From an uncultured Acidobacteriota bacterium (GTDB lineage: Bacteria > Acidobacteriota > Terriglobia > Terriglobales > Acidobacteriaceae), in contig CAWITE010000028.1 of assembly GCA_963838905.1 (NCBI GenBank), positions 148,865 to 180,864 on the forward strand: DNA of 32,000 nucleotides. Reading direction: 5' to 3'. The notes beneath the pieces were generated by a model, which was not told the DNA's origin, searched no databases, and saw nothing but the letters and a program-made list of their open reading frames with translations. Shown here in pieces: positions 710-32,000 of this stretch; the stretch's first letter is position 1; every line of letters starts with the position of its first letter. Made by a program: the position numbers and the translations under genes.

Positions 710-730
710 CTCCCGAATAACTGGTGTTCT

Positions 731-787: not shown

Positions 788-951
788 CGAAGACTTTAGT
801 CCTCCTGCTAACTTGCGCCCTGCCGAATTCGAAGTCGGGCGAGTTCTTGAGCAACCGGCACCAAATCATCCCTGATGACTTTGGTGCTTGCCGCTAGACT
901 TCTCTCTATCGCAGGCCAGTGGTATCTTTGCAGTAAGTACTCTATTCTGCG

Positions 952-2385: not shown

Positions 2386-2476
2386 GTGTACGGCAGGCTA
2401 CGCTAGGGCAGATATCCTTTTTGCCAACCACCTGCTTGTTACCTGTAGTCGGTCTGGATATTTTGCAGGAGCGCCC

Positions 2477-3322: not shown

Positions 3323-3355
3323 CGCAAGTTGGCCACTGAAGGGGCGACAGCATAC

Positions 3356-3427
3356 AACCTTTGTGTACTTCGTGTGATCGCATTTGCAATTCGTCAACCA
3401 CAAAGGACACCAAGGTACGCAAAGGTT
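3356..3427. repeat. Imperfect inverted repeat, CACAAAGG family (family B), between convergent genes
   Basis: aacctttgtgtac (3356..) pairs with gtacgcaaaggtt (..3427). The right half, caaccacaaaggacaccaaggtacgcaaagg, resembles the arm of the perfect repeat at 6863..6939. Confidence 0.6.
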
Positions 3428-3439
3428 CGGCAGGCCTGC

Positions 3440-3733
3440 TTACCGCCGTTTCATGGCTGCGGCTAGCGGCGCTACCCGGTCGCGCAATTCGTCAGCGATT
3501 TCCTGGCCGCGTTCCAGAGCGTCTTCGGCCACTTCTTTTGCGTCGTCTTTCCAGTCGTCCAAGGTCTCTCGCGCGTCTTCGTATCGGCGTCGCAATTCCT
3601 TGCGCATTTGTTTTCCCGGCTTAGGGGCGAACAGAAGTCCAATCAGGGTACCGGCTCCCAACCCAATCAGCAGGAATGTGATCGCGGTTGCGGCGGTGTT
3701 TCCTTCGGAAGACTCATATTTTCCTACACGCAT
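3440..3733 (-). CDS. YtxH-domain membrane protein
   Basis: Start at the ATG that is the complement of 3731..3733, preceded by GAGGAG. The product has a TM helix (AITFLLIGLGAGTLIGLLFAP) followed by a charged helical region (KELRRRYEDARETLDDWKDDAKEVAEDALERGQEIADELRDR), as is typical of YtxH/DUF948-like proteins. Confidence 0.72.
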   Translation of the reverse strand: MRVGKYESSEGNTAATAITFLLIGLGAGTLIGLLFAPKPGKQMRKELRRRYEDARETLDDWKDDAKEVAEDALERGQEIADELRDRVAPLAAAMKRR

Positions 3734-3971
3734 AAAAGCTCCTCTCTGGTCATGAAAATCTCGTGATGAAGCTGGCAACTTGAATTCGCCAAACATCATT
3801 CTAGCTGCCGGATGCGGCGAGTGCCGTGGATTCGTAATTCTTAACCTGGCCGCCGATTTCCCATATTGGCTCAAGTCCTGTAAAATAAGCACTTTGAGCC
3901 TCGTGTCTGGCGGAAAATGTGGATTGCCCGCGTCCGTCGGCTACCCGCAATCAAAGGAGATTCATTCAGTA

Positions 3972-7947: not shown

Positions 7948-8211
7948 ATGCAAGATCTTGAAAATCATTACGTCACCCGTTTACAAGGCATCCGGCGCCA
8001 GGGCGGGACGGTGCAAGTGTATGCCAACATCCCCCTGCCCTTGGCTTCCGCCCTGGACTTAGAGTCGGGCGAAACCGTGACCTGGAAAGTGCTCGACCGC
8101 ACCCATTTGCTGTTAGTGCGTTTGCCGGAGTGGAAGCAACTGAAGGGCGAGGCTGCGCCCCAGCCCTCCTCCCGGAAAAGGGCGCGGCGGGCCCGGGAGC
8201 AGCGGCCATGA
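7948..8211 (+). CDS. Small AbrB/SpoVT-like protein with basic tail, translationally coupled to the transposase
   Basis: IPLPLASALDLESGETVTWKVLDRTHLLLVRL resembles the swapped-hairpin AbrB/MazE pattern. The C-terminus is RKRARRAREQR. The stop TGA (8209..8211) overlaps the transposase ATG (8208..8210) as ATGA. An AT-rich promoter-like region lies directly upstream. Confidence 0.55.
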   Translation: MQDLENHYVTRLQGIRRQGGTVQVYANIPLPLASALDLESGETVTWKVLDRTHLLLVRLPEWKQLKGEAAPQPSSRKRARRAREQRP

Positions 8212-9917
8212 TGGGCAAGCTTTCTCCGCAAGACAAGCTGTTTGCCGCTGATCATGTCTATCTCGACTTTGTGGGCCGCGACACCCTGTACGGGTATCTG
8301 GCGCAGAACCGGGAGCAGCTGTTTCGCGATGAAGACTTCGCGGCTTTGTACTGCCCGGACAATGGACGCCAATCCGTGCCTCCCAGTGTGGCGGTGAGTG
8401 TGCTGTTCTTACGGGCGTACGAGGGGGTGAGTTTTGCCGAGGCGGTGGAGCGGACCAAATACGATCTGCGCTGGAAGGTAGCCTTGGGACTGGAGATGGA
8501 AGAAGTACCGATGCAGAAGAGCGCGCTGCAGGAGTTTGAGGCCAAGCTGGTTCTGCACGAGATGGAAGAGCCGCTGTTGAAGAAGTCAATCGCAGAAGCC
8601 CGGCGCGCCGGATACCTGCAGAATCGCAAGCTTCGCGTGGCCTTGGATACGACGCCGATCTTGGGCAAGGGAGCGGTGAAGGACACCTACAATCTGCTGG
8701 GAGAAGGGATCGAGAGGTTGGGGCGGCGGTTGGCGGAGGTAGAGGAAGAAGAGGTTACGGGGTGGGCCGCGAAGCAGGGGCTGAGTCGCTATTTTGGCAG
8801 CAGCGTGAAGGGAGAAGCCGGGATTGACTGGGACGACAAAGGGCAACGGGAACAGTTGTTAACCGAGATCGTGCAGGACGGGCGGCGCCTGCTAAGCCTG
8901 GCGGAGGAGATCCAAAAGCAGCATCCCGCGCAGACGGAAGCCATTGCCGCCGCCGCGGCTTTGCTGCTGCGGCTGATCGCGCAGGACGTGGAAGAAAAGC
9001 CGGAGGGCGGCTTTCAAGTAAAGTCGGGCACCGCCAAGGATCGGGTCCTCAGTGTTCACGATCCGGAGATGCGGCATGGACGCAAGAGCGCCAGCAAGCG
9101 CTTCAACGGACACAAGGCAGCGGTGGCGGTGGAGATGGAGAGTCAGTTGATCACGGGGGTGGAGGTGCTGGCGGGCAATGCTGGGGATCAGGAGAAAGCT
9201 CTGGAGTTGGTGCAGCAAAGCGAACGAGTGCTGGAGGCGAAGGTCGAAGAAACGGTGGGGGATTGTGCCTACGGAGGCGGCCCGACGCGGCGAGTCTTTG
9301 CGGAGGAAGAACGAATCCTGACGGCGAAGGTGCCGGCCCGTCACAACCGCAATTGTTTTTCCAAGAGTGAGTTTGAGATCGATTTGGATCAGATGGAAGT
9401 GCGTTGCCCGGCAGGCCAGAGTACGCGCGACTATCGCTCCGCCGGAGAAGGTCGAGGGGGCCAATTTCTTTTTTCCCAGGCCGGTTGTCAGGCCTGTCCC
9501 CTGCGCTCGCAATGCGTCCGTGGGCAAGGGCCGCGGAGTATCAGCATCCAAGCCGAAGAACGACTGCAGCAACAGGCCCGCGCCCATAACCAGACCGAGG
9601 CGGGGCGGCAGAGCTTGCGCGAGCGGGTGGTGGTGGAACATCGGATTGGGCGCCTGGTGGGATTAGGGATTCGCCAAAGTCGCTACTTCGGGAAAAAGAA
9701 AACCCGCTGGCAGGTGGTGATGGCCGCGGTAGTAGCAAACCTGAGTTTGGTGGTTGGGTACTGCCAGCGGCGGGCTCAGAGCCCCGACGCCGCCACCGCA
9801 GCCCAGGCCTCGGTACGGCCCACCAACGTTTTTCTGGCGGCTCTTTCGACCTTTTGGGCCCGATTTCTTCGCCTGAACCCCAACCCCGACTTAGGCGCCG
9901 CGTTCGGCGCAGTGTAA
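8208..9917 (+). CDS. DDE transposase (IS1182/IS5-like; InsH-type N-terminal domain)
   Basis: N-terminus MMGKLSPQDKLF...LYCPDNGRQSVPPSVAVSVLFLRAYEGVSFAEAVERTKYDLRWKVALGL. Cys cluster CPAGQ...CQACPLRSQC. C-terminal signature RERVVVEHRIGRLVGLGIRQSRYFGKKKTRWQVVMAAVVANL. Confidence 0.9.
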   Translation: MMGKLSPQDKLFAADHVYLDFVGRDTLYGYLAQNREQLFRDEDFAALYCPDNGRQSVPPSVAVSVLFLRAYEGVSFAEAVERTKYDLRWKVALGLEMEEVPMQKSALQEFEAKLVLHEMEEPLLKKSIAEARRAGYLQNRKLRVALDTTPILGKGAVKDTYNLLGEGIERLGRRLAEVEEEEVTGWAAKQGLSRYFGSSVKGEAGIDWDDKGQREQLLTEIVQDGRRLLSLAEEIQKQHPAQTEAIAAAAALLLRLIAQDVEEKPEGGFQVKSGTAKDRVLSVHDPEMRHGRKSASKRFNGHKAAVAVEMESQLITGVEVLAGNAGDQEKALELVQQSERVLEAKVEETVGDCAYGGGPTRRVFAEEERILTAKVPARHNRNCFSKSEFEIDLDQMEVRCPAGQSTRDYRSAGEGRGGQFLFSQAGCQACPLRSQCVRGQGPRSISIQAEERLQQQARAHNQTEAGRQSLRERVVVEHRIGRLVGLGIRQSRYFGKKKTRWQVVMAAVVANLSLVVGYCQRRAQSPDAATAAQASVRPTNVFLAALSTFWARFLRLNPNPDLGAAFGAV

Positions 9918-10120: not shown

Positions 10121-11035
10121 TCACTTCCACAGATAATAGAATCCCATCTGCTGGTCGAGCAGCTTCTCCCGGGTCGGCAGCCATTGGGAAATATCTCCGA
10201 ATAGCAGATCGGCTAAAGTCTTGCGATCTTTGTCCGGGCGCACCAGCACTGGCTCGCCTTTGATTCCGACCGACTTTGCGGTATCGTCGACCGCATTCTG
10301 GAAGTCGCCGATTTGATCGATCAGGTGGATGGAGAGCGCTTCCTGCCCGGTCCACACCCGGCCATCCGCGATTTTCTTAATGTCGTCGGACTTCGCATGG
10401 CGTCCGTCGGCTACTGCCTGCACGAACTGACCATACATGTTGTCGATCAGCGACTGCATATAAGCTCGCTCTTCCGGGGTCATCTCGCGGCTGGGGTCGC
10501 CCGTGTCCTTGAGCGCGCCAACTTTGAGCACTTCCGGTTTCAGCTTGGCCCAGCGCATCAGATCGCCGTAGTTTACCCACTCGGCAATCACACCGATCGA
10601 CCCGACCACGCTGCCATTGTCGGCATAAATCTTGTTGGTCGCGGAAGACACGTAGTATGCGCCGCTCGCGCCCACAGTGCTGATCGAGGCCACAATGCGC
10701 TTTTTCTTGTCGTCGCGGATGCGTTTGACCGCGCGATAAATTTCCTCGGACGCCGCCACTCCTCCTCCGGGAGAATTCACCCGCAGAATGATGGCCTTGA
10801 TGGAATCGTCGTCGCCGAATTTTTTAATTTGGGGCACAATGACGCTGGAGTCCAGAATTACGCCTTCCAGTTCCACCACGCCAATTTTGTCGCCGAAACC
10901 ATCGAGCGACGCGTGCTCTCCACCCCCGCGCAACGTCAGATACACGAGCGTAAACACGGCCAGCACGAAGAGGAAGAAAACTCCCCCCCCGATCACGATC
11001 CAGAGCAGAGTGCGGGAACGACCATTCTCAGCCAT
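10121..11035 (-). CDS. sppA: Signal peptide peptidase SppA, 36K type (S49 family)
   Basis: AIILRVNSPGGGVAASEEIY and STVGASGAYYVSSA (nucleophile Ser region), plus an N-terminal TM helix. The start is either ATG 11035 or GTG 11056, which would overlap the upstream gene. Confidence 0.85.
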   Translation of the reverse strand: MAENGRSRTLLWIVIGGGVFFLFVLAVFTLVYLTLRGGGEHASLDGFGDKIGVVELEGVILDSSVIVPQIKKFGDDDSIKAIILRVNSPGGGVAASEEIYRAVKRIRDDKKKRIVASISTVGASGAYYVSSATNKIYADNGSVVGSIGVIAEWVNYGDLMRWAKLKPEVLKVGALKDTGDPSREMTPEERAYMQSLIDNMYGQFVQAVADGRHAKSDDIKKIADGRVWTGQEALSIHLIDQIGDFQNAVDDTAKSVGIKGEPVLVRPDKDRKTLADLLFGDISQWLPTREKLLDQQMGFYYLWK

Positions 11036-15897: not shown

Positions 15898-16833
15898 ATG
15901 CTGAGAGAGAGTTTTCGCGGGAGCAAGCCATCGCGCTGTTTGGTCGTCTTAATGTTGCTGATTCTGTGCCCCGGGAGCCGCCCGGCCAGTGCTTCAGACA
16001 GCACATCGGGCAAGTCAATTCCTACCATCGTCTTCATGACTGACTTCGGTACAGTGGACGATTCGGTAGCGATCTGCAAGGGCGTGATGTATTCGATTTC
16101 TCCGGAGGTGCGCATTGTCGACCTCACACATGAAGTTACGCCGTTCTCTATCCTCGACGGAGCGCGCTTTCTGTACGGCACGACCCCATACTACGCGCCG
16201 GGAATGGTTTTTGTAGTGGTCGTGGACCCGGGTGTCGGCAGCACTCGGAAAGCGGTCGTGGTCAAGTCGAAGCGTGGGCAATATTTTGTTTTGCCGGATA
16301 ACGGGTTGATGACACTGGTGCAGGATCGTGATGGAATCGAGGGTGCACGCGAGATCACAAACCGCGATTGGATGATCGGAGCGGCGCTGTCATCGACTTT
16401 TCATGGACGCGACATATTTTCGCCCGTCGGCGCACACCTGGTGCGGGGCGACGACTGGACTGGCGTGGGACCCGAGCTTGATGTCAGCAAACTGGTGCGC
16501 CTGGACATCGCGCCCGCAAAGCTGGATGAACGCGGGTTGAGCGGAGAAGTGATCGCGACCGACGGACCCTTCGGCAATCTCGTCACCAATATCAGCGGCG
16601 GTGATTTTCTCAAACTGGGCTACACGCGGGGCCGGACGGTTCACATCACTATCGGAAAAAACGAGATGGATATTCTGTTCGTGCGCACCTTCAGCGACGT
16701 GCCGCTGAACAAGCCGCTGCTCTATATCGATTCTCGCGGGCATCTTGGTTTGGCCGTGAATCAGGGGAGCTTCGCGGCCACTTACGGGATAAAGCCTCCG
16801 GTCACAATCTTCATTCCGAAGGCCAGAAATTAA
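15898..16833 (+). CDS. SAM hydroxide adenosyltransferase family protein (DUF62; SalL/FlA-related) with predicted signal peptide
   Basis: IVFMTDFGTVDDSVAICKGVM, VVVDPGVGSTRK, VLPDNGL and STFHGRDIFSPVGAHL. A 40-aa N-terminal extension has a hydrophobic core LVVLMLLIL and ends in ASA-SD. Confidence 0.83.
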   Translation: MLRESFRGSKPSRCLVVLMLLILCPGSRPASASDSTSGKSIPTIVFMTDFGTVDDSVAICKGVMYSISPEVRIVDLTHEVTPFSILDGARFLYGTTPYYAPGMVFVVVVDPGVGSTRKAVVVKSKRGQYFVLPDNGLMTLVQDRDGIEGAREITNRDWMIGAALSSTFHGRDIFSPVGAHLVRGDDWTGVGPELDVSKLVRLDIAPAKLDERGLSGEVIATDGPFGNLVTNISGGDFLKLGYTRGRTVHITIGKNEMDILFVRTFSDVPLNKPLLYIDSRGHLGLAVNQGSFAATYGIKPPVTIFIPKARN

Positions 16834-20327: not shown

Positions 20328-21165
20328 CTAGGTATTCACGTCTGCCACGATCTCCGGCAAGACCGCCCGCAGCAGCGCCACGAAGTCTCCCTTAACCCGC
20401 TCGCCAGTCGCGAGCACGTCTCCGTGGCTGAGCACGTCATCGGAAATCCCCGCCGCCATGTTGGTCACGCAGGAAATGGCCAGCACCTTGATTCCCATGT
20501 GCCGAGCGGCGATGACTTCAGGAATCGTCGACATGCCCACCAGATCCGCGCCCATCGTACGCAGGTATCGAATCTCCGCTGGAGTCTCGTAACTCGGGCC
20601 CAAGAGTCCCGCGTAGACACCTTGATATACCGTCTTGCCCAAGTGGACGCGCGGCTCGCAGCGCGATCTCGCGATACGGCTTCGAGTACGCCTGAGTCAT
20701 GTCGGGAAATCGCGGTCCGAAGCGATCGTCGTTAGGACCGGTCAGCGGATTTTGTCCCTGCAGATTGATGTGGTCTGTAATCACGACCAATGCACCCTGT
20801 TTGTATTCGAGATTGATGCCCCCGGCGGCGTTGGTCAGGATTACCGCACGGATGCCCATTCTCCCAAACGCGCGGATGGGAAATGCGACCTCGTTCGGAG
20901 AATAGCCTTCGTACAAGTGCACCCGTCCCTGCATAGCCGCCACGGCAATGGAGCCAACTTTCCCGATCACCATATGACCGGCATGGCCGATTGCAGTGGA
21001 ACGCGGGAAGTAAGGAATATTCGCGTAGGGGATTCGCGTTGCTTCAGAGAGCTCGTCGGCAAAGCCGCCTAGACCCGAGCCCAGAACCAGTCCGATGGAT
21101 GGAGAAAGTTGAGTCTGCAAAAGCAGAAAGTTCGCGGCAGATTCAGCGTTGGTGAAGTCGTCCAT
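20328..21165 (-). pseudogene. Purine nucleoside phosphorylase (PunA/PNP type) split by a frameshift near 20643..20652
   Basis: The 5' ORF (21165..20518) matches PNP up to ...[13 protein letters not shown]. The 3' ORF (20642..20328) continues in another frame with [48 protein letters not shown]. Together they make one full-length PNP. Confidence 0.8.
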
Positions 21166-21230
21166 AAGGGGCCAGCTCCTGGCTACATCTTGTCCACTGA
21201 AAACTGTGAAACATCAACTAACAACTGCTT

Positions 21231-22823
21231 CTAGAACTTCTTTTCGAATACAGCGAACTCCTCTTCAAGTTTCCACTGCATCTGGGCGCGTTCGCTGCCA
21301 TCCAGAAATTTCTGACACGCGGCAGATACTTTCCTCGAGCCGGCACGATCGTCCGTACACGCCGCGACCGGACGGAAGTCGGATGCCCACAGGCTGGAAC
21401 CTGCCAGAAAGCTATGCTCGAGGCTCATTCGCGCCATGCGCTTTAAGTCTTTGTAACCGAGGAAATCATAAGTGTGAACTGCACGCAGATACTCATGAAT
21501 CATATCGGAGCGCGATACTCCCTCGTCATCAGTGGCCAGGGCTACCGGCACGCCGTACCGCAGATAGATCGGCAGAGGATGGGCGTCGCCCTTTACGCCC
21601 AGGATTACATCATTGGAAGTCAGGCAGATTTCGACCAGAACATTCCTTCGTGCCATCTCGCGCACCAAATCGATCGGGTGATCCTCGTTCATCACGTCCA
21701 CGCCATGGCCGATGCGCTCTGCGTGTCCGCGCTCGACTGATTCGCGGATATGGAAGCGCAGGCCCTCCGGCGGCACCAGGCCCATGGCCAGCTCCCCGGC
21801 GTGCAGGCTGATGTGCACCTTGGGATAGACGCCGTGCAGGTAGTCAAGCATCTTCATGTGCAACTCGAAATCGTGCATGGGGACGTACCAATCTTCAGGC
21901 TGGACGAGGTTCAGGCCCACACAACGCGGATCCGTTTGCGCCAGTTCGAAGCCGAAAAGAATCTCTGCGAAGACCATCTCGCGAGGCAGCCCACGCAGCA
22001 CCTGATACAAGTAGCGAATCTTAACCGCGCATCCCGGGTTTGCTTCCACAGTCCCGCACTTGAGGACAGACCGCATTTTGCCCTCGTCTTCATCGAGCCG
22101 CTTGCTGGTAGTGGCGACGATCTCCTTGAGACCATCGGTCAGCAACTTCTCACGCATATGGGCGAAGTCATCGTCCCATCCCAGCTTCGCGCCGAGTTGC
22201 CCGGACTGAACTGAATCCGCGGTATACATCAACTCGAGATATTGAAGACGGTCTGCCGCCGCGCGCGATGCCGCCTCGGCAAGAGCGTCCCCGGTACGGT
22301 TATGAGTCGCCAACGAAAACTTGTCGAAGGTGGCGAAGAAATGATCGTGCCCCGATTCTTCCCCCGGTGCCCAATTACGCATCGACCAGGCGTCGACGAT
22401 CGAGTTGTAGAGAACATGGTCGCCGTATGCACAACGGATCGCCGGCTTGCTCGTGTACTTTGCGCAGGAATCGTCACACGGAGGGGCTATAAGAATCGAA
22501 GTCGTACGGTCCACGCACAGATTGTCGCTCGCGGCATAGTCGATCAGATTCTCCGCGTACAGCGCGCCGCTCAAATGGATATGCAGATCGCCACCTTTGG
22601 GCATGTCGCGCAGGAACGCCAACTGAAGTGAAGGCTGCCGCCGGATGGACTCGAAATGGCGCGCAGTCCGCTGCTCAGCGCTTGGACCGGATTGCGCCGA
22701 CGCAGAACCGGCGAGCCACGCGATGATTAGAAGAACAGCCGACCGACCGACGGGCCCCACAGCGTCTCCCGTAACAAAGATCTTTCTGGAAACGGGCATT
22801 TTACCCTGACGCAATGAAAACAT
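21231..22823 (-). CDS. Adenosine deaminase family protein, long ADGF/ADA2-like form with signal peptide
   Basis: Metal and catalytic motifs GGDLHIHLSG, HISLHAGE, RIGHGVDV and ALATDDEGVSRSD. The N-terminus has a hydrophobic signal region (AVLLIIAWLAGSASAQS). The start is 22823 or 22799. Confidence 0.85.
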   Translation of the reverse strand: MFSLRQGKMPVSRKIFVTGDAVGPVGRSAVLLIIAWLAGSASAQSGPSAEQRTARHFESIRRQPSLQLAFLRDMPKGGDLHIHLSGALYAENLIDYAASDNLCVDRTTSILIAPPCDDSCAKYTSKPAIRCAYGDHVLYNSIVDAWSMRNWAPGEESGHDHFFATFDKFSLATHNRTGDALAEAASRAAADRLQYLELMYTADSVQSGQLGAKLGWDDDFAHMREKLLTDGLKEIVATTSKRLDEDEGKMRSVLKCGTVEANPGCAVKIRYLYQVLRGLPREMVFAEILFGFELAQTDPRCVGLNLVQPEDWYVPMHDFELHMKMLDYLHGVYPKVHISLHAGELAMGLVPPEGLRFHIRESVERGHAERIGHGVDVMNEDHPIDLVREMARRNVLVEICLTSNDVILGVKGDAHPLPIYLRYGVPVALATDDEGVSRSDMIHEYLRAVHTYDFLGYKDLKRMARMSLEHSFLAGSSLWASDFRPVAACTDDRAGSRKVSAACQKFLDGSERAQMQWKLEEEFAVFEKKF

Positions 22824-24442: not shown

Positions 24443-25024
24443 ATGGTTTCCGAGGGGGCGGATTGCATGCGCGATGCGGTCGCACGGCTGTGGCCGGAGA
24501 TTCAGTGGATTGAGAAACCTAAGCTGCGGGAGCAGGTCACCCAGACCTGGATCAAAGCACTGGAACGCAGCCCGCTGAAACCTGATGACCTGAATCGCAT
24601 TCCGTTCACACTGCTCGTGCTCAACTGCCCAATCACTTTTATGGAGCATAAGCGCTGCGTGGTCCACATCGCACGTCAGAGTGCCGAGTCCATGCACGAA
24701 TTCATGGGCCGCGCGCTGCCGATTAACATGGACGTCGTAATCGCGGGCGCCATTCTTGCTGACGTCGGCAAGCTGCTCGAATACGAACTCGGACCCGACG
24801 GCAAGAGTCGCCAAAGTGAGCGCGGCGAAGCCTTGCGGCATCCGTTCACGGGAGTCGCGCTGGCGCTCGAATGCGGTGTGCCCGACGAAGTTTGCCACGT
24901 TATCGCGGCTCATGCCGCCGAAGGTGATCTGGTGAAACGCACCACCGAAGCGTACATCGTGCACCACGCTGACTTCATGGCATTCTTGCCGTTTAAGAAT
25001 CCGAAGAACGTGAAGGTGAAATGA
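24443..25024 (+). CDS. HD-superfamily-like protein with a variant metal dyad
   Basis: EHKRCVVHIARQSAE...VVIAGAILADVGKLLEY...VIAAHAAEGD...IVHHADF follows the HD-domain spacing. The canonical HD dyad reads AD. Confidence 0.7.
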   Translation: MVSEGADCMRDAVARLWPEIQWIEKPKLREQVTQTWIKALERSPLKPDDLNRIPFTLLVLNCPITFMEHKRCVVHIARQSAESMHEFMGRALPINMDVVIAGAILADVGKLLEYELGPDGKSRQSERGEALRHPFTGVALALECGVPDEVCHVIAAHAAEGDLVKRTTEAYIVHHADFMAFLPFKNPKNVKVK

Positions 25025-25054
25025 GTTATGGCTTAAACATTGTTCCTTACTCTT

Positions 25055-25127
25055 GTCATTCCGAGCGAAGCGAGGAATCTGCTGTTTTTTGCGCAGAATT
25101 CAGATCCCTCGCTTCGCTCGGGATGAC
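25055..25127. repeat. Inverted pair of family A units forming a 27-bp-arm hairpin
   Basis: gtcattccgagcgaagcgaggaatctg (25055..25081) pairs with cagatccctcgcttcgctcgggatgac (25101..25127). There are 2 mismatches and a 19-nt T-rich loop. Confidence 0.85.
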
Positions 25128-25162
25128 AAGTCGATGGAAATGAAGCAACCCAAGGAGATTCC

Positions 25163-26617
25163 TTGTCTGCCGCTAAAGAAGCAGTCGCCACCAAAGAGAC
25201 CATTACCGCGAAGATGTCGCGCTGGGCAGCGACTCTCGAATACAAGCATGTCTCGCAGGATGCCGTGTATCAAGCCAAACGCTTCCTGCTGGATTCCATC
25301 GGCTGCGCCCTCGGCGGCTACCAACAACACGATGTAAAGATTGCACTCGAAGTACTCGATGAGATCGCGGGCAAAGGTGCGGCTACGGTAATTGGCACCG
25401 GCAAGCGCATCGATCCCGTCTCGGCCTCGCTCGCCAACGCCCTCATGATCCGCTGCATGGATTACAACGACATTTACTGGAAGCAGGATCCATCGCATCC
25501 TTCCGACATTTTTCCTGCGGCATTCGCGTGCTGCGAGCGCACCAAGAGCAACGGAAAGGAATTGATCGTCGGCCTGGTGCTGGGGCACGAATTTGAAATG
25601 CGTTTCTGCGAAGCCGCGTTCCCCGGAATCCGCGAGCGCGGCTGGCATCACGCAACCTTAACCGCCTTCGTCTCACCCTTCGTCGCCGGACGCGCTCTGC
25701 ATCTCCCGTGGGAACAGATTCAACATGCCGTAGGCATCTCGGCGAGCCGCCACGTCACGCTGGGAGCGGTAACTGCCGGCAAGCTCACCATGATGAAGAA
25801 CACGGTCGACCCAATGGCAATCCAGAGCGGCGTGCTCGCCGCGCTCATGGCGGAGAAGGGCTACACCGGACCCGAGCACGTAGTCGATGGAAAAGAAGGA
25901 TTGACGCACGTCTTTGGGCCGGAGTGGAAGCTGAATATTTTAACTGACGGACTCGGCGATTCGTGGCGCATCACGCAGTGCGGCATGAAGGCGTTTCCAA
26001 CCGAAGCGCTGACCCATACGCCAATTTCTGCGGTGCTCGACATCGTGAAATCGAATGACTTGAAACCGGATGAGGTGACCAAGATTCAGATCCGATCGCT
26101 GGCTCGCGCCGCCGACATTCTTTCCGATCCCAGCAAATATGATCCTCGGAGCAAAGAGACGGCCGATCATTCTCTGCCTTACGTAATCGCAGCGGCGCTG
26201 GCGGAGCGGAAGGTGACGCCGGTGCAGTTCACCATGGAAAAGATCATGGACCCGACTATTCGTGCCCAACTGCAGAAAGTCGAAGTCGTGGCCGATCCGG
26301 AAATCGAGAAAGTGTTTCCCGCAATGCAGCGGGTGATCGTAAACATCACGACCACCGACGGTCGCATGTTCACCAAGCAACTCGACTATCCCAAGGGCGA
26401 CCCGCGCAACCCACTTACCGATCAGGAAGTCGAAGAAAAATTCGCGGCACTGGCCGAAAGCGTATTGTCGCAGCGCGCCCAGCAAAAGCTGAAAGACGCC
26501 ATCTGGAACCTGGAGAGCATCGGCTCAGTAAGCAAGCTGATGGCGCTGATGAAAGCAGACGTGCGAGCGAAAAAGCTTGCCCCGCGCAAGCCGACGAGCA
26601 AGAAAAAGCGATTGTAG
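25163..26617 (+). CDS. MmgE/PrpD-family protein (2-methylcitrate dehydratase-like)
   Basis: AKRFLLDSIGCALGGY, the DYNDIY region, GWHHATL and full family length (484 aa). TTG 25163 follows AAGGAGA. The alternative start is ATG 25214. Confidence 0.87.
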   Translation: MSAAKEAVATKETITAKMSRWAATLEYKHVSQDAVYQAKRFLLDSIGCALGGYQQHDVKIALEVLDEIAGKGAATVIGTGKRIDPVSASLANALMIRCMDYNDIYWKQDPSHPSDIFPAAFACCERTKSNGKELIVGLVLGHEFEMRFCEAAFPGIRERGWHHATLTAFVSPFVAGRALHLPWEQIQHAVGISASRHVTLGAVTAGKLTMMKNTVDPMAIQSGVLAALMAEKGYTGPEHVVDGKEGLTHVFGPEWKLNILTDGLGDSWRITQCGMKAFPTEALTHTPISAVLDIVKSNDLKPDEVTKIQIRSLARAADILSDPSKYDPRSKETADHSLPYVIAAALAERKVTPVQFTMEKIMDPTIRAQLQKVEVVADPEIEKVFPAMQRVIVNITTTDGRMFTKQLDYPKGDPRNPLTDQEVEEKFAALAESVLSQRAQQKLKDAIWNLESIGSVSKLMALMKADVRAKKLAPRKPTSKKKRL

Positions 26618-26673
26618 AAACGTTACTTGCAACGTTTGTTAAGTTTGTCATTCCGAGCGAAGCGAGGAATCTG
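26613..26673. repeat. Family C hairpin (tgtagaaacgttacttgcaacgtttg) plus a family A unit
   Basis: The 7-bp stem aaacgtt/aacgttt spans 26618..26637 and overlaps the prpD-like stop codon. gtcattccgagcgaagcgaggaatctg at 26647..26673 is identical to 25055..25081. Confidence 0.75.
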
Positions 26674-26734
26674 CATTTTGTTAATGGATGACGGGCCTCT
26701 CGCCCGGCCTCCACAGAAAAGCCGGGAGTAATTC

Positions 26735-28678
26735 ATGCCCCAGACCATCGTTGAAAAAATCGCGCAAGCCCACCTCGCTGAAGGCCCCAATCGCCCGCTG
26801 CGGACTGGCGACTTCCTCTCCATTCGCCCGCACCACGTGATGACTCACGACAACACCTCAGCAGTGATGAGCAAGTTCAAAGGCATCGGCGCGAAAAAGA
26901 TTCACGATCCCAAGCAACTCGTCTTCGCTCTCGACCACGACATCCAAAATAAAGACGAAGCCAACCAAAAAAAATATCGGGCTATCGAGGCATTCGCCAA
27001 GGAACACGGTGTCGACTTTTACCCCGCGGGCTCAGGCATCGGCCATCAAATCATGGTGGAGCGCGGATACGTCGTCCCCGGCTCATTCGTGGTCGCCTCC
27101 GACTCGCACTCGAACATGTACGGCGCGCTGGGAGCGATCGGGACGCCCATCGTGCGCACCGACGCCGCCGCAGTCTGGGCCACGGGAGAATTCTGGTGGC
27201 AGATTCCACGTTCGGTCGAGGTCGTGCTCGAAGGCAAATTACCCGACGGCGCGACCGGCAAAGACATAATCATTACCTTGTGCGGCCTCTACAACCACGA
27301 TGAGGTTTTAAACGCCGCCGTCGAATTCAGCGGCCCCGGGGTTGCCGGTCTCTCCATGGGCGCGCGCCTTTCCATCTCCAACATGACCACCGAGTGGGGG
27401 CCACTCGTGGGCTGGTTTCCGGTGGATGAAGTAACGATCAAATATCTAAAGAATGTACATGTGCGGCTGAAGGCCACGGGTGTGGAACGGTTTTCGGAGA
27501 AAGACATCGAGAGTTGGACAAAGAATTCGCCACGACCCGATGCCGATGCAGTCTACGCGGCTCGGATCGTGCTTAATCTCGGACAGGTGACGCCACACGT
27601 ATCGGGTCCCGATACAGTGCAGACCATGGCTTCTCTCGCCGAGATGGAAAAGAAAAGGGTCGCGATCCAGAAAGCTTACTTGCTCTCTTGCGTGAACTCG
27701 CGCGTCGAAGATCTCGAAGCTGCGGCGAAGGTTTTGAAAGGCAAGAACGTCGCGGCGGGCGTGCAATTCTATCTTGGAGCGGCCAGCAAGTGGGTACAGG
27801 AAGAAGCCGAAAAGCGCGGCATCTGGCAAACGTTGCTTGATGCCGGAGCGAATCCCCTCCCCGCCGGTTGTGGCCCGTGCATCGGTCTGGGAGTAGGACT
27901 GCTCGAGCCCGGCGAAGTCGGAATCTCTGCCACCAATCGCAATTTCAAAGGCCGCATGGGATCGCGCGATGCCAAGTGTTACCTGGCGAGCCCCGAGGTA
28001 GTCGCCGCTTCTGCCGTAGCCGGCTACATTTGCGGACCGCATGAGATGACCGGCGGCGATCCGTCGCGCAGCTACACCGAATTTGCCGCAGGTACCGAAG
28101 CAGAGAAAGTCGACATTCTCCCCGGCTTCCCCGAGAGAGTCCATGGCCGCCTCGTTTTCCTGCCACAAGACAACGTGAACACCGATGCGATCTACGGAAA
28201 GGACTACACTTACCGCGATGATGTCCCGAAAGAATTGATGGCGAAGGTCGTAATGGAAAACTACGATCCGCAGTTCGCGTCTCGCACTCGCGCCGGCGAC
28301 GTGGTCGTCAGCGGATTCAACTTCGGAACGGGGTCGAGCCGCGAGCAAGCTGTGACTTGCCTCAAAGCCAAAGGCATTCCGCTGGTGATTGCGGCCAGTT
28401 TTTCGCAGACCTATCTGCGCAACGCGTACAACAATGGCTTCCTCTGCGTCGAAGTACCGGACCTTGTGAAGCGCCTACGCGAGCAATTGGCCAACGAAAT
28501 CGCTGCGAAAGAAAAAACTATCATTCCGGGCGAAGAAATCGATATCGACTTCACCTCGGGAGTGATCCACTGGCGCGGCGAAAAGTTCGCGTTTCCCGCG
28601 CTAGGGAGCGTGCCACAGTCACTGGTCATCGCCGAGGGAGTGGAGAACCTGGTAGCGAAGCGCCTGGGCCTGAGCTGA
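26735..28678 (+). CDS. Aconitase-family hydro-lyase, fused large+small (swivel) domains; homoaconitase / short 'Aquifex-type' aconitase-like
   Basis: HVMTHDNT, SDSHSNMYGALGA, Fe-S ligands SCVNSR and GCGPCIG, ATNRNFKGRMG and the C-terminal swivel domain GFNFGTGSSREQA. The product is 647 aa. The RBS GGGAG precedes the ATG. Confidence 0.9.
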   Translation: MPQTIVEKIAQAHLAEGPNRPLRTGDFLSIRPHHVMTHDNTSAVMSKFKGIGAKKIHDPKQLVFALDHDIQNKDEANQKKYRAIEAFAKEHGVDFYPAGSGIGHQIMVERGYVVPGSFVVASDSHSNMYGALGAIGTPIVRTDAAAVWATGEFWWQIPRSVEVVLEGKLPDGATGKDIIITLCGLYNHDEVLNAAVEFSGPGVAGLSMGARLSISNMTTEWGPLVGWFPVDEVTIKYLKNVHVRLKATGVERFSEKDIESWTKNSPRPDADAVYAARIVLNLGQVTPHVSGPDTVQTMASLAEMEKKRVAIQKAYLLSCVNSRVEDLEAAAKVLKGKNVAAGVQFYLGAASKWVQEEAEKRGIWQTLLDAGANPLPAGCGPCIGLGVGLLEPGEVGISATNRNFKGRMGSRDAKCYLASPEVVAASAVAGYICGPHEMTGGDPSRSYTEFAAGTEAEKVDILPGFPERVHGRLVFLPQDNVNTDAIYGKDYTYRDDVPKELMAKVVMENYDPQFASRTRAGDVVVSGFNFGTGSSREQAVTCLKAKGIPLVIAASFSQTYLRNAYNNGFLCVEVPDLVKRLREQLANEIAAKEKTIIPGEEIDIDFTSGVIHWRGEKFAFPALGSVPQSLVIAEGVENLVAKRLGLS

Positions 28679-28691
28679 AGTCGAGACGGAC

Positions 28692-28720
28692 TGTAGAAAC
28701 GTTGCTTGCAACGTCTTTCA
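28692..28720. repeat. Family C hairpin (tgtagaaacgttgcttgcaacgtctttca)
   Basis: The 6-bp stem acgttg/caacgt has loop cttg. The sequence is nearly identical to 26613..26640. Confidence 0.65.
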
Positions 28721-28780
28721 GGCAGCCCCAAAAAACTCTCTGTGCCTCTGTGGTGAAAAGTTCTTAGGAGAATCGCATTC

Positions 28781-29965
28781 ATGGCAAAACATACGGTAGT
28801 AACAATGCCCGGCGACGGAATCGGAAACCAAGTACTGCCCGAGGCATTGCGGGTATTGAAAGCTGTCGGCTCCGACACCGACTACGTCCACGCCGACATC
28901 GGCTGGGAGTGCTGGAGAAATGAAGGCAACGCACTTCCTCAACGGACGATTGATCTTCTGTCCGAACACAAGCTGGGTCTTTTCGGAGCCATTACTTCAA
29001 AACCAAACAAAGAAGCACAAGCGGAACTCAAGCCCGAATTGCAAGGCAAGGGTCTGGTGTACTACAGCCCGATCGTGACCATGCGCCAGAAGTTCAGCCT
29101 CGATGTCTGCATGCGCCCTTGCATTGGGTTCACCGGCAATCCTCTGAACTACATTCGCAAGCGCGTGGACGACGACTACGACGAGCCGCAAATCGACACC
29201 ACGGTGTTTCGGCAAAATACAGAAGGCATGTACGCCGGGATCGAGTGGACCAACCCGCCTGAGATTGTGCGCGCCGCCCTCAACTCGCATCCCAAGTTCA
29301 AAGCCTTCGCCCAAGTGCCCGGTCCGGACATCGCAGTTAGCGTACGCATCATCACTCGGCCCGCCGCCCGCCGTATCGTCACCGCCGCCTTTGAGTATGC
29401 GAAAAAGCGCGGTTTCAAGGGCGTAACCATCTGCGAAAAGCCAAACGTAGTTCGCGAAACTTCGGGCATGATGGAAGAGACTGCCAAAGAAGTGGCCAAG
29501 AACTATCCGGGAATCGCTCTGTGGTCGACGAACATCGATGCGCAACTAATGTGGCTGAACAAAAATCCTGAAGACTACAGCGTGATCGTAGCCTCGAACC
29601 TGTTCGGCGATATCCTTTCCGACGCTTTCGCCGGACTGGTCGGCGGCCTGGGATTTGCCGCCTCCGGCAACATCGGAGATGAAGTCGCGGTATTCGAGCC
29701 CACCCACGGATCCGCGCCCAAGTATGCCGAACTGAATCCCCCAATCGTGAATCCAATCGCCATGATCCTCTCCGCCGTAATGATGCTTGAACACGTGGGC
29801 GAGAACAACAAAGCCGGGAGAATTAAGGACGCCATCTCCACTGTGTTGAAAGAAGGCAAAGTCCGAACCTACGACATGATGCGCATTCCGGGCGGGGCGA
29901 AGTCGATCAGCCAGGGCGCCGCCTCGACAATTCAAATGACCGACGCAATCCTGGCACAACTATAA
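28781..29965 (+). CDS. Isocitrate/isopropylmalate-family beta-decarboxylating dehydrogenase
   Basis: MPGDGIGNQV, RQKFSLDVCMRP, FRQNTEGMYAGIEW, NLFGDILSDAFAGLVGGLGFAASGNIG and FEPTHGSAP. The RBS AGGAGA precedes the ATG. Confidence 0.9.
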   Translation: MAKHTVVTMPGDGIGNQVLPEALRVLKAVGSDTDYVHADIGWECWRNEGNALPQRTIDLLSEHKLGLFGAITSKPNKEAQAELKPELQGKGLVYYSPIVTMRQKFSLDVCMRPCIGFTGNPLNYIRKRVDDDYDEPQIDTTVFRQNTEGMYAGIEWTNPPEIVRAALNSHPKFKAFAQVPGPDIAVSVRIITRPAARRIVTAAFEYAKKRGFKGVTICEKPNVVRETSGMMEETAKEVAKNYPGIALWSTNIDAQLMWLNKNPEDYSVIVASNLFGDILSDAFAGLVGGLGFAASGNIGDEVAVFEPTHGSAPKYAELNPPIVNPIAMILSAVMMLEHVGENNKAGRIKDAISTVLKEGKVRTYDMMRIPGGAKSISQGAASTIQMTDAILAQL

Positions 29966-29974
29966 CTCACGTGA

Positions 29975-30014
29975 GGACAGCCGCCCCCGGCTGTCCGGCC
30001 GAGCGAAGCTCGGC
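29975..30014. repeat. Two adjacent perfect hairpins (family D-like)
   Basis: ggacagccg-cccc-cggctgtcc at 29975..29996 and gccgagc-gaa-gctcggc at 29998..30014, 15 nt before the next start codon. Confidence 0.8.
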
Positions 30015-30029
30015 TGCTTGAGACGTCGC

Positions 30030-31238
30030 ATGAATGACACGGAACTGAGAACAGCTCGCGTCGGCGAAGCCGGCCACCACGGCAAAGACGTGCGCTCCGA
30101 TTTGCACGTCGCCATTGCACCGCGTAACAGCAGCGGTCTGGAGATCACGCTCGAGTCCCGCGTTGGGCTCTACTATGGCAGCTCGATCCTGTGCCAGACA
30201 CGGCAGGTGCTCGAATCCCTCGGCGTAAAGCACGCGCGTATTTCAATTCACGATGACGGCGCGTTGCCGTTCGTCATCTCAGCGCGAATTGAAGCCGCGG
30301 CAAAACGCGCCGGCCTCGGTGGTGGCCAGAGAGCGTTGCCGGAGAAAATCACTCTCCAAGAACCGACGACTCGCGATCGCCTGCGGCGATCTCGGCTTTA
30401 TCTCCCCGGAAGCGAGCCCAAGTATTTCATCAACGCCGCATTGCACGGGCCCGACGCCATTATTTTGGATCTGGAAGACTCCGTTCACCAGGATGAAAAA
30501 GATGCCGCGCGAATCCTGGTGCGAAATACTCTGCGCGCCGTCGACTTCGGTAGCTGTGAGCGCATGGTGCGCATCAACCAGTTGCCGCTGGGGCTGGAAG
30601 ATCTGGCAGAGATTATTCCCGAAGCTCCCGACCTGGTGCTGATTCCGAAGGTGGAAAGGCACGATCAAGTCGGCGAAGCAGATCGCGTGATAAGTGAACT
30701 GAAAGTCAGCCATGGTATCGATCGCGCGATATGGCTGATGCCTATTCTGGAATCGGCTCGCGGAATCGAAAATGCATTCGCCATCGCGACGGTGAGTCCG
30801 AATATTGCCGCGCTGACCATCGGGCTCGAAGACTACACCGCAGACCTCGGCGTGGTGAAAACATTGGAAGGCCGCGAGTCGCAGTACGCACGGACTCGTG
30901 TGGTCAACGCGGCGAAAGCAGCCGGCATTCAGGCTATCGACTCCGTTTTTAGCGATGTCGGTGATGTTTCCGGTTTACTTCACTGGGGAGAACATTCTCG
31001 CGCCTTAGGATTCGAAGGCATGGGCTGTATTCATCCCTCGCAGATCCCCGTCATTCATCAAGCCTTTGCGCCGTCACCGGTAGAAGTCGAAAAGGCGCTG
31101 AAGATCGTCGCCGCCTTCGAAGATGCGCGGCAGCGCGGACTCAGCGTCGTGAGCCTCGGCTCGAAGATGATCGATCCACCTGTAGTCGAACGCGCCCGAA
31201 AGCTGGTGGCAAGGGCAAAGGCGATGGGCAAGGCCTAG
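30030..31238 (+). CDS. Fusion of citrate lyase acyl carrier protein (CitD-like) and citrate lyase beta / citryl-(ACP/CoA) lyase (CitE, HpcH/HpaI family)
   Basis: The N-terminal ~100 aa (DLHVAIAPRNSSGLEITLESRV...ISIHDDGALPFVISARIEAAAKRA) align with CitD. The rest (RRSRLYLPGSEPKYF...AIILDLEDSV...MPILESARGIENAFAIA...LTIGLEDYTADLG...GMGCIHPSQI) is CitE. The start is ATG 30030, with TTG 30018 as the alternative. Confidence 0.85.
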   Translation: MNDTELRTARVGEAGHHGKDVRSDLHVAIAPRNSSGLEITLESRVGLYYGSSILCQTRQVLESLGVKHARISIHDDGALPFVISARIEAAAKRAGLGGGQRALPEKITLQEPTTRDRLRRSRLYLPGSEPKYFINAALHGPDAIILDLEDSVHQDEKDAARILVRNTLRAVDFGSCERMVRINQLPLGLEDLAEIIPEAPDLVLIPKVERHDQVGEADRVISELKVSHGIDRAIWLMPILESARGIENAFAIATVSPNIAALTIGLEDYTADLGVVKTLEGRESQYARTRVVNAAKAAGIQAIDSVFSDVGDVSGLLHWGEHSRALGFEGMGCIHPSQIPVIHQAFAPSPVEVEKALKIVAAFEDARQRGLSVVSLGSKMIDPPVVERARKLVARAKAMGKA

Positions 31239-31253
31239 CAGATCTAATGTGGT

Positions 31254-31272
31254 GACGGGCGACTCGCCCGTC
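31254..31272. repeat. Perfect 8-bp stem/triloop hairpin (gacgggcg-act-cgcccgtc)
   Basis: Read directly from the sequence. It lies in the 77-nt spacer between citDE and citF. Confidence 0.7.
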
Positions 31273-31315
31273 CGCGCCGGGCGAAGCCCAGCGGTTAAGA
31301 CAGTAAAGGAATGGA

Positions 31316-32000
31316 ATGAGCGAACGCATCGAACTTGCCCAGAATGCCGCCGGACGCAGCGTGCCCACCATGGTTAACGGCAAGCCGCAGATTCCATTTC
31401 TGGGCGTGGCGCAGTATCAACCGCGCGGCCGAAAGGCTGCCCCACCCATCTGTTCCAGCAAAGATTATCCTGAGAACGGCGACAAACGCGTGGCCAACCT
31501 TGAAACCGCTCTGCGCAATTGCGGCTTGCGTAACGGCATGGTGATTTCGAATCACCATCACCTGCGCGACGGAGACCGCGTCGCGCTGATGGCACTCGAA
31601 GCGGCGGCAAGAATCGGTGTCAAGGATCTGATGTGGTTTCCGAGCGCCTCGTTCCCCTCGCAGAAATCTGCGATCGAGCTTATGCAATCCGGCGTCATCC
31701 ATCGCATCGAAGGCAGCATGAATGGCCCGCTGGGCGACTACTGCACCCAGGGAAAGATGCGGGGCATGGGCGTGTTGCGCTCCCATGGCGGGCGTTGGCA
31801 GTCTATTCAAGATGGCGAAGTGCACATTGACGTCGCGGTGATTGCCGGGCCTGCCGCTGATGCCTTTGGCAATGCTGACGGATCGCATGGGAAATCGGCT
31901 TGCGGCTCGCTGGGCTTCGCCCTCGCTGATTCGATGTACGCTGATCGCGTCATCGTCGTCACCGACAATCTGGTTCCCTTCCCCTGCATTCCCTGGCAGA
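31316..32000 (+). CDS. citF: Citrate lyase alpha subunit / citrate CoA-transferase (CitF-like), 5' part; continues beyond the window
   Basis: My own translation from ATG 31316, which follows AAAGGA: MSERIELAQNAAGRSVPTMVNGKPQIPFLG...GRKAAPPICSSKDYPENGDKRVANLETALRNCGLRNGMVISNHHHLRDGD...VLRSHGGRWQSIQDGEVHIDVAVIAGPAADAFGNADGSHGKSACGSLGFALADSMYADRVIVVTDNLVPFP. This is collinear with the CitF sequence I recall. It is absent from the ORF track because it has no stop in the window. Confidence 0.87.
   Translation, partial: MSERIELAQNAAGRSVPTMVNGKPQIPFLGVAQYQPRGRKAAPPICSSKDYPENGDKRVANLETALRNCGLRNGMVISNHHHLRDGDRVALMALEAAARIGVKDLMWFPSASFPSQKSAIELMQSGVIHRIEGSMNGPLGDYCTQGKMRGMGVLRSHGGRWQSIQDGEVHIDVAVIAGPAADAFGNADGSHGKSACGSLGFALADSMYADRVIVVTDNLVPFPCIPWQ

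Follow-up and report, generated by a model that had tools for sequence, protein, structure and literature searches.

A 32,000-nucleotide stretch of DNA from an uncultured Acidobacteriota bacterium of the family Acidobacteriaceae (GenBank assembly GCA_963838905.1, contig CAWITE010000028.1, positions 148,865 to 180,864; the whole stretch is called the window below) carries six co-directional genes, encoding an HD-domain protein, a protein of the MmgE/PrpD family, a fused aconitase-like hydratase, a dehydrogenase that resembles isocitrate dehydrogenase (IDH), and the CitD-CitE and CitF parts of a lyase of the citrate lyase type. Our tentative proposal, possible rather than probable, is that this operon handles a chiral homologue of citrate, with homocitrate as the best candidate, in one self-contained route. 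The gene content, its conservation and the sequence signatures are observed; from them we infer the substrates, their stereochemistry, the coupling of the lyase to the dehydratase, hydratase and dehydrogenase trio, and the direction of flow. Homocitrate offers the most economical scheme because the hydratase bears the signature of a homoaconitase and the dehydrogenase that of a homoisocitrate dehydrogenase (HICDH). Each of these protein families is well known, and what is new is their combination and the specificities predicted for them. To our knowledge no described pathway joins a lyase, a dehydratase, a hydratase and a dehydrogenase in this way, and full-text searches of the literature did not find a paper on this operon.

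Layout and conservation of the operon

The genes are arranged as follows (aa, amino acids; nt, nucleotides).

24467-25024, + strand: HD/HDIG-domain gene, 185 aa when read from the ATG at which orthologues start (24443 is the start of the open reading frame as called mechanically)
25163-26617, + strand: PrpD-like (MmgE/PrpD family) gene, 484 aa, TTG start with AAGGAG 7 nt upstream
26735-28678, + strand: fused aconitase-like Fe-S hydro-lyase (hydratase) gene, 647 aa, Pfam Aconitase and Aconitase_C
28781-29965, + strand: IDH-like beta-decarboxylating dehydrogenase gene, 394 aa, Pfam Iso_dh
30018 (TTG) or 30030 (ATG) to 31238, + strand: CitD-CitE fusion gene, about 403-406 aa, ACP, HpcH_HpaI and C-C_Bond_Lyase domains
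31316-32000 (window end), + strand: CitF gene, first 228 aa of a protein of about 520 aa in relatives, Pfam CitF

An earlier note on this DNA had described five same-strand genes with spacers of 64-117 nt. Open reading frame (ORF) calls give the same positions, strand and spacers, the intervals being 117 nt from the PrpD-like gene to the hydratase gene, 102 nt from there to the IDH-like gene, 52 nt (64 from the ATG) to CitD-CitE and 77 nt to CitF. Its family assignments likewise agree with the Pfam domains of the five genes (MmgE_PrpD_N and C; Aconitase and Aconitase_C; Iso_dh; acyl carrier protein (ACP) of the CitD/MdcD type and HpcH_HpaI; CitF), all of which were found with E-values of 1e-17 or better. 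The start of the module at 25163 has to be revised: the unit begins earlier, because a co-directional HD gene lies directly upstream, 138 nt from the PrpD-like gene on the same strand, and is kept at this place in 55 of the 66 loci that could be evaluated (see below). A scan of the window found neither plus-strand terminator-like sites nor sigma-70-like promoters inside the cluster, the terminator-like sites that were found being all on the minus strand, and an Rfam scan of the window found no RNA families.

Conservation was followed by scanning one genome per species with an alignment of PrpD-like proteins, which gave 80 loci, and by a tblastn screen with the window's six proteins. Order could be evaluated in the 66 loci that reach at least 8 kb beyond the start of the PrpD-like gene. 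The PrpD-like, aconitase-like, IDH-like, CitD-CitE and CitF genes keep the same order and strand in 53 of them, so chance does not account for the neighbourhood. Carriers belong to the Terriglobia (among them Ca. Sulfotelmatobacter, Terracidiphilus and Ca. Korobacteraceae) and to the Gemmatimonadota; all are metagenome-assembled genomes (MAGs) of uncultured bacteria, and surveys of bog, fen, peat (SPRUCE) or soil have given many of the records their names.

The PrpD-like orthologues are 66-97% identical across the Acidobacteriota and Gemmatimonadota loci sampled. Thousands of close relatives of this protein exist, the best 120 being 85-97% identical to the window copy, and the named relatives among the best matches are all MAGs of Terriglobia or Acidobacteriia, in keeping with the Acidobacteriota that the earlier note had in mind. 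Between the two phyla the identity is 71-76%, a figure that suggests either transfer of the operon or very strong constraint. A 5.3-kb contig of a Verrucomicrobiota MAG labelled Akkermansiaceae (CAXMRU010000158.1, our locus L062) holds HD, PrpD-like and hydratase genes whose products are 73-76% identical to the window's; it may be mis-binned, or it may represent a third phylum with the operon.

The family is also compact. A search of 1.84 billion cluster representatives returned a handful of full-length proteins at 39-60% identity to the PrpD-like protein, beneath which lies the general MmgE/PrpD background at 30-36%. Most of the relatives at 39-60% are stand-alone or sit on short contigs, and the informative exception is a low-GC (38%) genome (L088; GCA_038882735.1, JAVZNQ010000016.1, 628-10032) with a related but different cluster. 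Its two PrpD-family genes are 43% and 27% identical to the window's. They are accompanied by a cupin-like ORF, by HacA/LeuC and LeuD subunits that are split and of archaeal type, by a solute-binding protein of the branched-chain-amino-acid type and by a 641-aa Fe-S flavoprotein resembling OYE/enoate reductases. Near the 43%-identical PrpD-like gene lies an HD protein that is 41% identical to the window's and has an intact HD motif. Since HD and PrpD-like proteins are paired there with archaeal-type HacA/LeuC and LeuD, the trio of HD protein, PrpD-like protein and aconitase-family hydratase appears to be old and to recur with non-orthologous hydratases.

Shorter variants occur as well: three loci (L051, L069, L073) have the HD, PrpD-like and hydratase genes, one (L009) is without the lyase genes, and two (L058, L059) have the PrpD-like gene alone. 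In L010 (11487-11951) and about ten further Terriglobia loci a DinB-superfamily gene (154 aa), absent from the window, stands between the PrpD-like and hydratase genes; its presence would explain the gaps of 600-970 nt between these two genes in a subset of loci. A tblastn search of plasmids with the hydratase returned only LeuCD-type matches, at no more than 37% identity.

Exact-sequence look-ups of the window's CitD-CitE and IDH-like proteins gave no match, and close relatives were used to extend past the end of the window. The genes 3' of CitF vary among the loci (thioredoxin-like, SDR, SpoIIE phosphatase, aminotransferase, VWA and others), so the operon ends at CitF. The accessory genes citC, citX and citG are not in the window, as the earlier note had said, and in the loci of L001, L002 and other relatives examined neither these genes nor a transporter or regulator were found downstream of CitF.

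It is scarcely credible that these genes are a coincidental neighbourhood of housekeeping tricarboxylic acid (TCA) cycle, leucine and citrate-lyase genes. Such a neighbourhood would fit with the housekeeping nature of the flanking genes, and with the lack of any regulator or transporter that would mark a dedicated catabolic operon. Conservation of gene order in 53 of the 66 loci and across two phyla, while the flanks vary, nonetheless largely refutes it, and the spacers are short and free of plus-strand terminator-like sites. Moreover, the equivalog cut-offs of acnA/acnB, icd, leuB, leuC/D, prpD and citD/E/F are all missed, so no housekeeping equivalog is reached. The earlier note had let its case turn on these two matters, gene order in relatives and orthology with housekeeping enzymes, and both come out on its side.

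Signatures of the enzymes

The hydratase passes TIGR00139, the 'homoaconitase' model of the fungal Lys4 type, with 764.6 bits against a cut-off of 529.9. It misses the aconitase equivalogs (PRK07229, 362.9 against 612; aconitase_mito, 185 against 825; AcnA, 157 against 686; AcnB, 107 against 782) and also stays below the cut-offs of the LeuC/LeuD models and of the archaeal isopropylmalate isomerase (IPMI) model. The cluster-cysteine motifs SCVNS and GCGPCIG are present in its sequence. The small-domain loop reads NTDxIYGKDYTYR(D/E), and its arginine is kept in 68 of 69 aligned orthologues, with a lysine in the remaining one. We take this loop to correspond to those that hold Arg26 of methanogen homoaconitase and Arg580 of aconitase, both of which presumably bind the third carboxylate of the substrate, and the conserved arginine thus fits a tricarboxylate. 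The homoaconitases of fungi and Thermus catalyse only the interconversion of homoaconitate and homoisocitrate, leaving the dehydration of homocitrate to a second enzyme, there aconitase, and the methylcitrate cycle splits its isomerisation between PrpD and aconitase (PMC3556520). A PrpD-like protein beside a Lys4-type hydratase fits this two-enzyme logic of homocitrate isomerisation and the methylcitrate cycle.

No NCBIfam equivalog, icd included, is reached by the dehydrogenase. Its best models are two homoisocitrate dehydrogenase models of the AksF type (AksF2 HICDH, 275 against 540; AksF, 266 against 500), followed by archaeal LeuB-type and IDH models. In the substrate helix the sequence is (Y/F)SPIV(T/S/G)(M/L)R, of which (Y/F)SPIV is invariant in 57 orthologues, and HICDH of S. 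pombe (3ty3) has the same motif in YSSPIVALRK; here the Protein Data Bank (PDB) was searched with a segment of yeast Lys12, and the actual S. pombe sequence was taken from the alignment. Yeast HICDH is specific for homoisocitrate. The corresponding helix of IDH, with Ser113-x-Asn115 (E. coli numbering), binds the gamma-carboxylate of isocitrate. Of this S-x-N-V motif the equivalent of Ser113 is kept, and that of Asn115 is isoleucine in all 57 orthologues. The helix of Thermus HICDH, GAIRYLRR, differs from the motif of the operon enzyme, and the equivalent of its Arg85 is valine in all 57. On the cofactor side, APKY and TYDM(M/L)R are conserved throughout the 57 sequences with single exceptions at the last arginine and inside TYDM; we take these residues to be the NADP-binding Lys344, Tyr345, Tyr391 and Arg395 of E. 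coli IDH. The central insertion aligns best with prokaryotic NADP-IDHs. All told, the enzyme looks like an NADP-IDH scaffold fitted with the substrate helix of a fungal HICDH.

The three parts of the lyase all fall under the citrate lyase cut-offs, as would be expected for an altered substrate. The CitE part scores 256.8 bits against the 443.4 of TIGR01588 (citE) and the CitD part 53.8 against 63.5, while a full-length CitF orthologue of 520 aa in L002 narrowly misses TIGR01584, with 469 against 501.45 (the partial window copy scores 179). The second-best NCBIfam match of the CitE part is the RipC/Ccl citramalyl-CoA lyase, at 162.7 bits. All 54 aligned sequences keep a carrier serine, in V(R/G/Q)SD, at a position that we take, by manual alignment only, to be Ser14 of E. 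coli CitD. Because of this invariance the ACP domain is probably functional; a prosthetic group of the phosphoribosyl-dephospho-CoA type is then to be expected, and the genes for its synthesis must lie elsewhere.

Two other assignments of the substrate have to be weighed against these signatures. At the level of citrate, the PrpD-like protein would interconvert citrate and cis-aconitate and the hydratase cis-aconitate and isocitrate, forming a split aconitase that works with an NADP-IDH and an ordinary citrate lyase. The set could then serve a branched citrate fermentation, with one arm to acetate and oxaloacetate and another to 2-oxoglutarate, or run in reverse as an ATP-free conversion of 2-oxoglutarate and CO2 to acetate and oxaloacetate in anoxic peat. 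We judge this unlikely. The retained serine, NADP-binding residues and IDH-type insertion of the dehydrogenase speak for it, as does the closeness of CitF to the citF cut-off (469 against 501); E. coli PrpD dehydrates citrate weakly, Thermus HICDH uses isocitrate well though it lacks the IDH asparagine, and citrate lyase chemistry fits the bog, fen, peat and soil surveys after which so many of the MAG carriers are named. Set against this are the isoleucine and valine that replace Asn115 of IDH and Arg85 of the Thermus enzyme in every orthologue, a hydratase that passes a homoaconitase model and no aconitase model, and the failure to reach the icd, acnA and acnB equivalogs. Moreover, citrate is prochiral: an ordinary aconitase could handle it, and there would be no need for a PrpD-type partner. 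The earlier note had offered three readings, a branched citrate fermentation, catabolism of a substituted citrate, and a lyase-driven condensation feeding an elongation cycle. The first of these is weakened, and the second is the best supported of them through the homocitrate signals (the TIGR00139 pass, the fungal HICDH motif and the missing IDH asparagine).

At the level of citramalate or other alkylmalates, the lyase would join acetate and pyruvate reversibly to (S)-citramalate, and citraconate, 3-methylmalate and 2-oxobutyrate would follow. This would link (S)-citramalate, for example from the breakdown of itaconate or mesaconate, to propionyl-CoA or isoleucine metabolism. The stereochemical argument given below holds equally well for this substrate, (S)-citramalate is that of the clostridial CitDEF-type lyase, RipC/Ccl is the runner-up for CitE, and the substrate-helix residues of the dehydrogenase (Ile, Val) are hydrophobic, as in isopropylmalate dehydrogenases. 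That said, an arginine or lysine like that of the hydratase loop is usual in enzymes whose substrate has a third carboxylate to be bound, the homoaconitase model is passed whereas those of LeuC/LeuD and archaeal IPMI are missed, and SPIV is the motif of fungal HICDH, the yeast member of which is specific for homoisocitrate. We therefore hold a citramalate-level route to be distinctly unlikely.

The PrpD-like protein misses all of the PrpD equivalogs (92.8 against 575, 92.1 against 950 and 66.7 against 458 bits). Among solved structures it comes nearest to IDS epimerase and the B. subtilis IRG1 homologue, with 131 bits, followed by cis-aconitate decarboxylase (CAD) at 100 bits, with true PrpD at 40-59 bits. 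The active site of human CAD presumably comprises D93, T97, H103, H159, K207, K272, H277 and Y318. In a HMMER alignment to 12vw five of these eight residues are kept (D93, H103, H159, K207 and K272), while Ile, Glu and Asp stand in the places of T97, H277 and Y318. By its sequence, then, the protein is not a PrpD orthologue. The label PrpD-like of the earlier note agrees with its MmgE/PrpD-family Pfam domains, but the protein is nearer to IDS epimerase and CAD than to PrpD. We propose that it is a dehydratase acting on a tertiary-alcohol acid, converting homocitrate to cis-homoaconitate. At another locus (L090; ENA ERZ27260996 k141_2710834, 500-3968), a 39%-identical PrpD-family gene adjoins genes for TctB, a subunit of the tripartite tricarboxylate transporter, and for a UbiD-family decarboxylase; this gene probably has a different function.

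Were the PrpD-like protein instead a decarboxylase or an isomerase or epimerase, its product would be itaconate-like or epimeric and the logic of a dehydratase followed by a hydratase would be wrong. The ranking of solved structures (131 bits for the epimerase and the IRG1 homologue and 100 for CAD, with true PrpD at only 58) points that way, as do the five retained CAD residues. The substitutions at T97, H277 and Y318 do not, and in every lineage, the distant L088 included, the protein is closely paired with a hydratase of the aconitase family, much as PrpD is with aconitase. In addition, a decarboxylase would leave the downstream oxidative decarboxylase without the 3-substituted malate that it requires. 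On balance, we regard such an activity as improbable.

A proposed route through homocitrate

The case for homocitrate also has a stereochemical side. Citrate lyase is pro-3S specific, as stated in the name of TIGR01588, and citramalate and citramalyl-CoA lyases of the CitE type act on the (S)-acid or (S)-thioester. Synthases of the LeuA, CimA and homocitrate synthase (HCS) type make (R)-acids, which are the ones accepted by enzymes of the aconitase family. For unsymmetrical homologues of citrate, a CitDEF-type lyase would thus form or split the enantiomer that Fe-S hydro-lyases cannot bind. This may be why a PrpD-family partner takes the place of aconitase: enzymes of the aconitase family are enantioselective, those of the Lys4 type are limited to the second half-reaction, and a dehydratase of another fold could connect lyase and hydratase by way of the achiral cis-alkene.

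In the proposed route, CitD-CitE and CitF would form an ACP-dependent lyase that interconverts free acetate plus 2-oxoglutarate and a 2-substituted malate, (S)-homocitrate. Judging from citrate (pro-3S)-lyase and (S)-citramalate lyase, this acid would have the (S)-configuration, opposite to that of the homocitrate which homocitrate synthase makes. The PrpD-like dehydratase would convert (S)-homocitrate to the achiral alkene cis-homoaconitate, the fused Lys4-type Fe-S hydratase would add water to give homoisocitrate, and the NADP-dependent dehydrogenase would interconvert homoisocitrate and 2-oxoadipate plus CO2. The net reaction would be acetate + 2-oxoglutarate + NADP+ <-> 2-oxoadipate + CO2 + NADPH, with no use of CoA or ATP.

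The direction of cleavage, from 2-oxoadipate, CO2 and NADPH to 2-oxoglutarate and acetate, is slightly more attractive because the operon has a lyase rather than a synthase and an NADP-type cofactor site, and because the MAG names suggest an origin in bog, fen, peat or wet soil. Taken further, the operon might be a reversible one-carbon 'gearbox' for 2-oxoacids, independent of CoA and ATP and working through the unnatural (S)-homocitrate. In anoxic peat it would run in reverse, consuming CO2 and NADPH, so that 2-oxoadipate from lysine or aminoadipate would be shortened to 2-oxoglutarate and acetate. We offer this extension as a doubtful one. If it were true it would call for three activities that are new: an ACP-dependent lyase and a PrpD-family dehydratase, both acting on (S)-homocitrate, and an HICDH that depends on NADP.

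Several observations weigh against a homocitrate route. The PrpD-like protein is closer to an epimerase and a decarboxylase than to any proven dehydratase. The dehydrogenase has the K-Y cofactor pair of NADP-IDHs and an IDH-type insertion, whereas the aligned HICDHs, such as that of Thermus, have the NAD-type pair D-I. In loci of Holophagae, Thermoanaerobaculia and Sulfomarinibacteraceae the PrpD-like and hydratase genes occur as a pair alone among unrelated genes (CinA, GpsA, ThiI, multihaem cytochrome), and their solitary occurrence among housekeeping genes in the first two groups means that the pair is not strictly dependent on an adjoining lyase. The genes needed for a holo-lyase, citC, citX and citG, lie outside the operon in the loci examined. 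Within about 10 kb at the roughly 80 loci, no homocitrate synthase, aminotransferase, LysW-type or later lysine genes were found. The context in L088, which adds archaeal LeuCD/HacAB-type subunits, a solute-binding protein and an enoate-reductase-like flavoprotein, indicates that the family may act on other unsaturated acids. Finally, the net reaction would be near equilibrium by a rough estimate, made by analogy with the equilibria of citrate lyase, aconitase and IDH; either direction is possible, and the genes cannot be read for direction.

Two further possibilities were set aside. A role in lysine biosynthesis is unlikely, there being no linked synthase or later lysine genes and a diaminopimelate (DAP) epimerase gene near the L051 locus. 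Methylcitrate was rejected as the substrate, since the dehydrogenase cannot oxidise the tertiary alcohol of 2-methylisocitrate.

Among known systems, the alpha-aminoadipate lysine pathway of fungi and Thermus (homocitrate synthase, aconitase or another homocitrate dehydratase, Lys4/LysF, Lys12) shares with the proposed route its intermediates, namely homocitrate, cis-homoaconitate, homoisocitrate and 2-oxoadipate, and its isomerisation by two enzymes (PMC3556520). The likeness extends to the hydratase, which passes the Lys4 model, and to the fungal HICDH motif of the dehydrogenase. The operon differs in having a CitDEF-type lyase for the acetyl-CoA-dependent synthase and a PrpD-family protein for aconitase, in the NADP-type rather than NAD-type pair of its dehydrogenase, in the lack of linked later lysine genes and in the opposite enantiomer proposed. 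The 2-methylcitrate cycle (PrpC, PrpD, AcnB/AcnA, PrpB) also combines a PrpD-family dehydratase with an aconitase-family hydratase, the Fe-S enzyme being incapable of the first dehydration. The operon, however, is without PrpC and PrpB, its PrpD-like protein is not an orthologue of PrpD, and a decarboxylating dehydrogenase follows.

The lyase has the same components, an ACP with its carrier serine, a subunit of the HpcH fold and CitF, as the CitCDEFXG citrate lyase of enterobacteria and lactic acid bacteria and the citramalate lyase of Clostridium tetanomorphum. It differs from them in that CitD and CitE are fused, all parts are below the cut-offs, citC, citX and citG are unlinked, and the lyase lies within an isomerase-dehydrogenase operon. 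The 2-oxoacid elongation of methanogen coenzyme B synthesis (AksA, AksD/E, AksF) is alike in its chemistry, the iterative elongation of dicarboxylic 2-oxoacids being what we propose here, and its AksF2 and AksF are the best matches of the dehydrogenase. Those matches are far below the cut-offs (275 against 540 for AksF2), the operon has a fused hydratase of the fungal type, and a lyase takes the place of the synthase. Methanogen homoaconitase carries out both half-reactions without a partner.

Companion protein, surroundings and significance

The HD protein is an obligate companion of the PrpD-like enzyme. It passes the NCBIfam HDIG model TIGR00277 (32.9 bits against a cut-off of 27.6), has no Pfam match, and in a sequence search of the PDB found nothing better than E = 0.09. 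Its AlphaFold2 (AF2) model has a pLDDT of 79, and Foldseek returned only weak, generic HD-fold matches (YhaM, YfbR, OxsA; best E = 0.018). The histidine of the HD motif is replaced by alanine (LADVGK) in 64 of 64 orthologues, and the remaining His and Asp residues are invariant.

Spacers of the operon contain copies of a repeat resembling repetitive extragenic palindromes (REP).

25043-25139, no strand assigned: inverted repeat with 39-nt arms, from the REP-like element GTCATTCCGAGCGAAGCGAGGAATC, in the HD-PrpD spacer
26647-26675, + strand: another copy of the REP-like element, in the PrpD-Acn spacer

The element has the core CGAGCGAAGC and a longer form, GTCATTCCGAGCGAAGCGAGGAATC, and occurs in five copies in the window against 0.27 expected. 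The copies are at 25043-25139, 26647-26675, 30000-30009 and 144-153; four are in operon spacers, and two of these form the inverted repeat with 39-nt arms. L001, a close relative, has the long form in its HD-PrpD and PrpD-Acn spacers, and L038 has one copy of it. In most relatives the HD-PrpD spacer is 5-76 nt long and has no REP-like element.

Elsewhere in the window, at 8130-9917, an ORF for a DDE transposase (DDE_Tnp_1_6, DUF772, DDE_Tnp_1) coincides with raised GC content (0.615) and a GC skew that is strongly positive (0.12-0.18) relative to the surroundings. The stretch is probably an insertion sequence, and the terminal inverted repeats around the ORF amount to one weak 14-nt candidate pair (8085-8098 and 10153-10166). 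Positions 15898-16833 and 20518-22823 hold genes for a SAM hydroxide adenosyltransferase (SAM_HAT N and C), a protein of the purine nucleoside phosphorylase family and an adenosine-deaminase-like protein (530 aa), and these flank a gene for a 1105-aa CarboxypepD_reg/OMP beta-barrel receptor. Upstream of the operon in L001 and L002 the phosphorylase, deaminase and He_PIG genes occur again, so close relatives share this synteny.

Terriglobia and Gemmatimonadota are among the most abundant bacteria of soil and peat, and the operon is among their most conserved gene sets, with PrpD-like proteins 66-97% identical. Whichever reading holds, the automatic names given to its products ('2-methylcitrate dehydratase', 'isocitrate dehydrogenase', 'citrate lyase') are probably misleading. 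Were the operon to work on citrate after all, it would be an ATP-free, citrate-cleaving reductive branch in peat bacteria. If the homocitrate proposal is true, the operon would give the homocitrate/2-oxoadipate branch its first entry or exit by way of a lyase, and its PrpD-family partner would be a bacterial answer to the question of who performs the first half of homocitrate isomerisation. It would also draw attention to a bacterial lineage with close similarity to the fungal Lys4 homoaconitase, and would mean that the chemistry of 2-oxoacid elongation can work with free acetate, possibly backwards.

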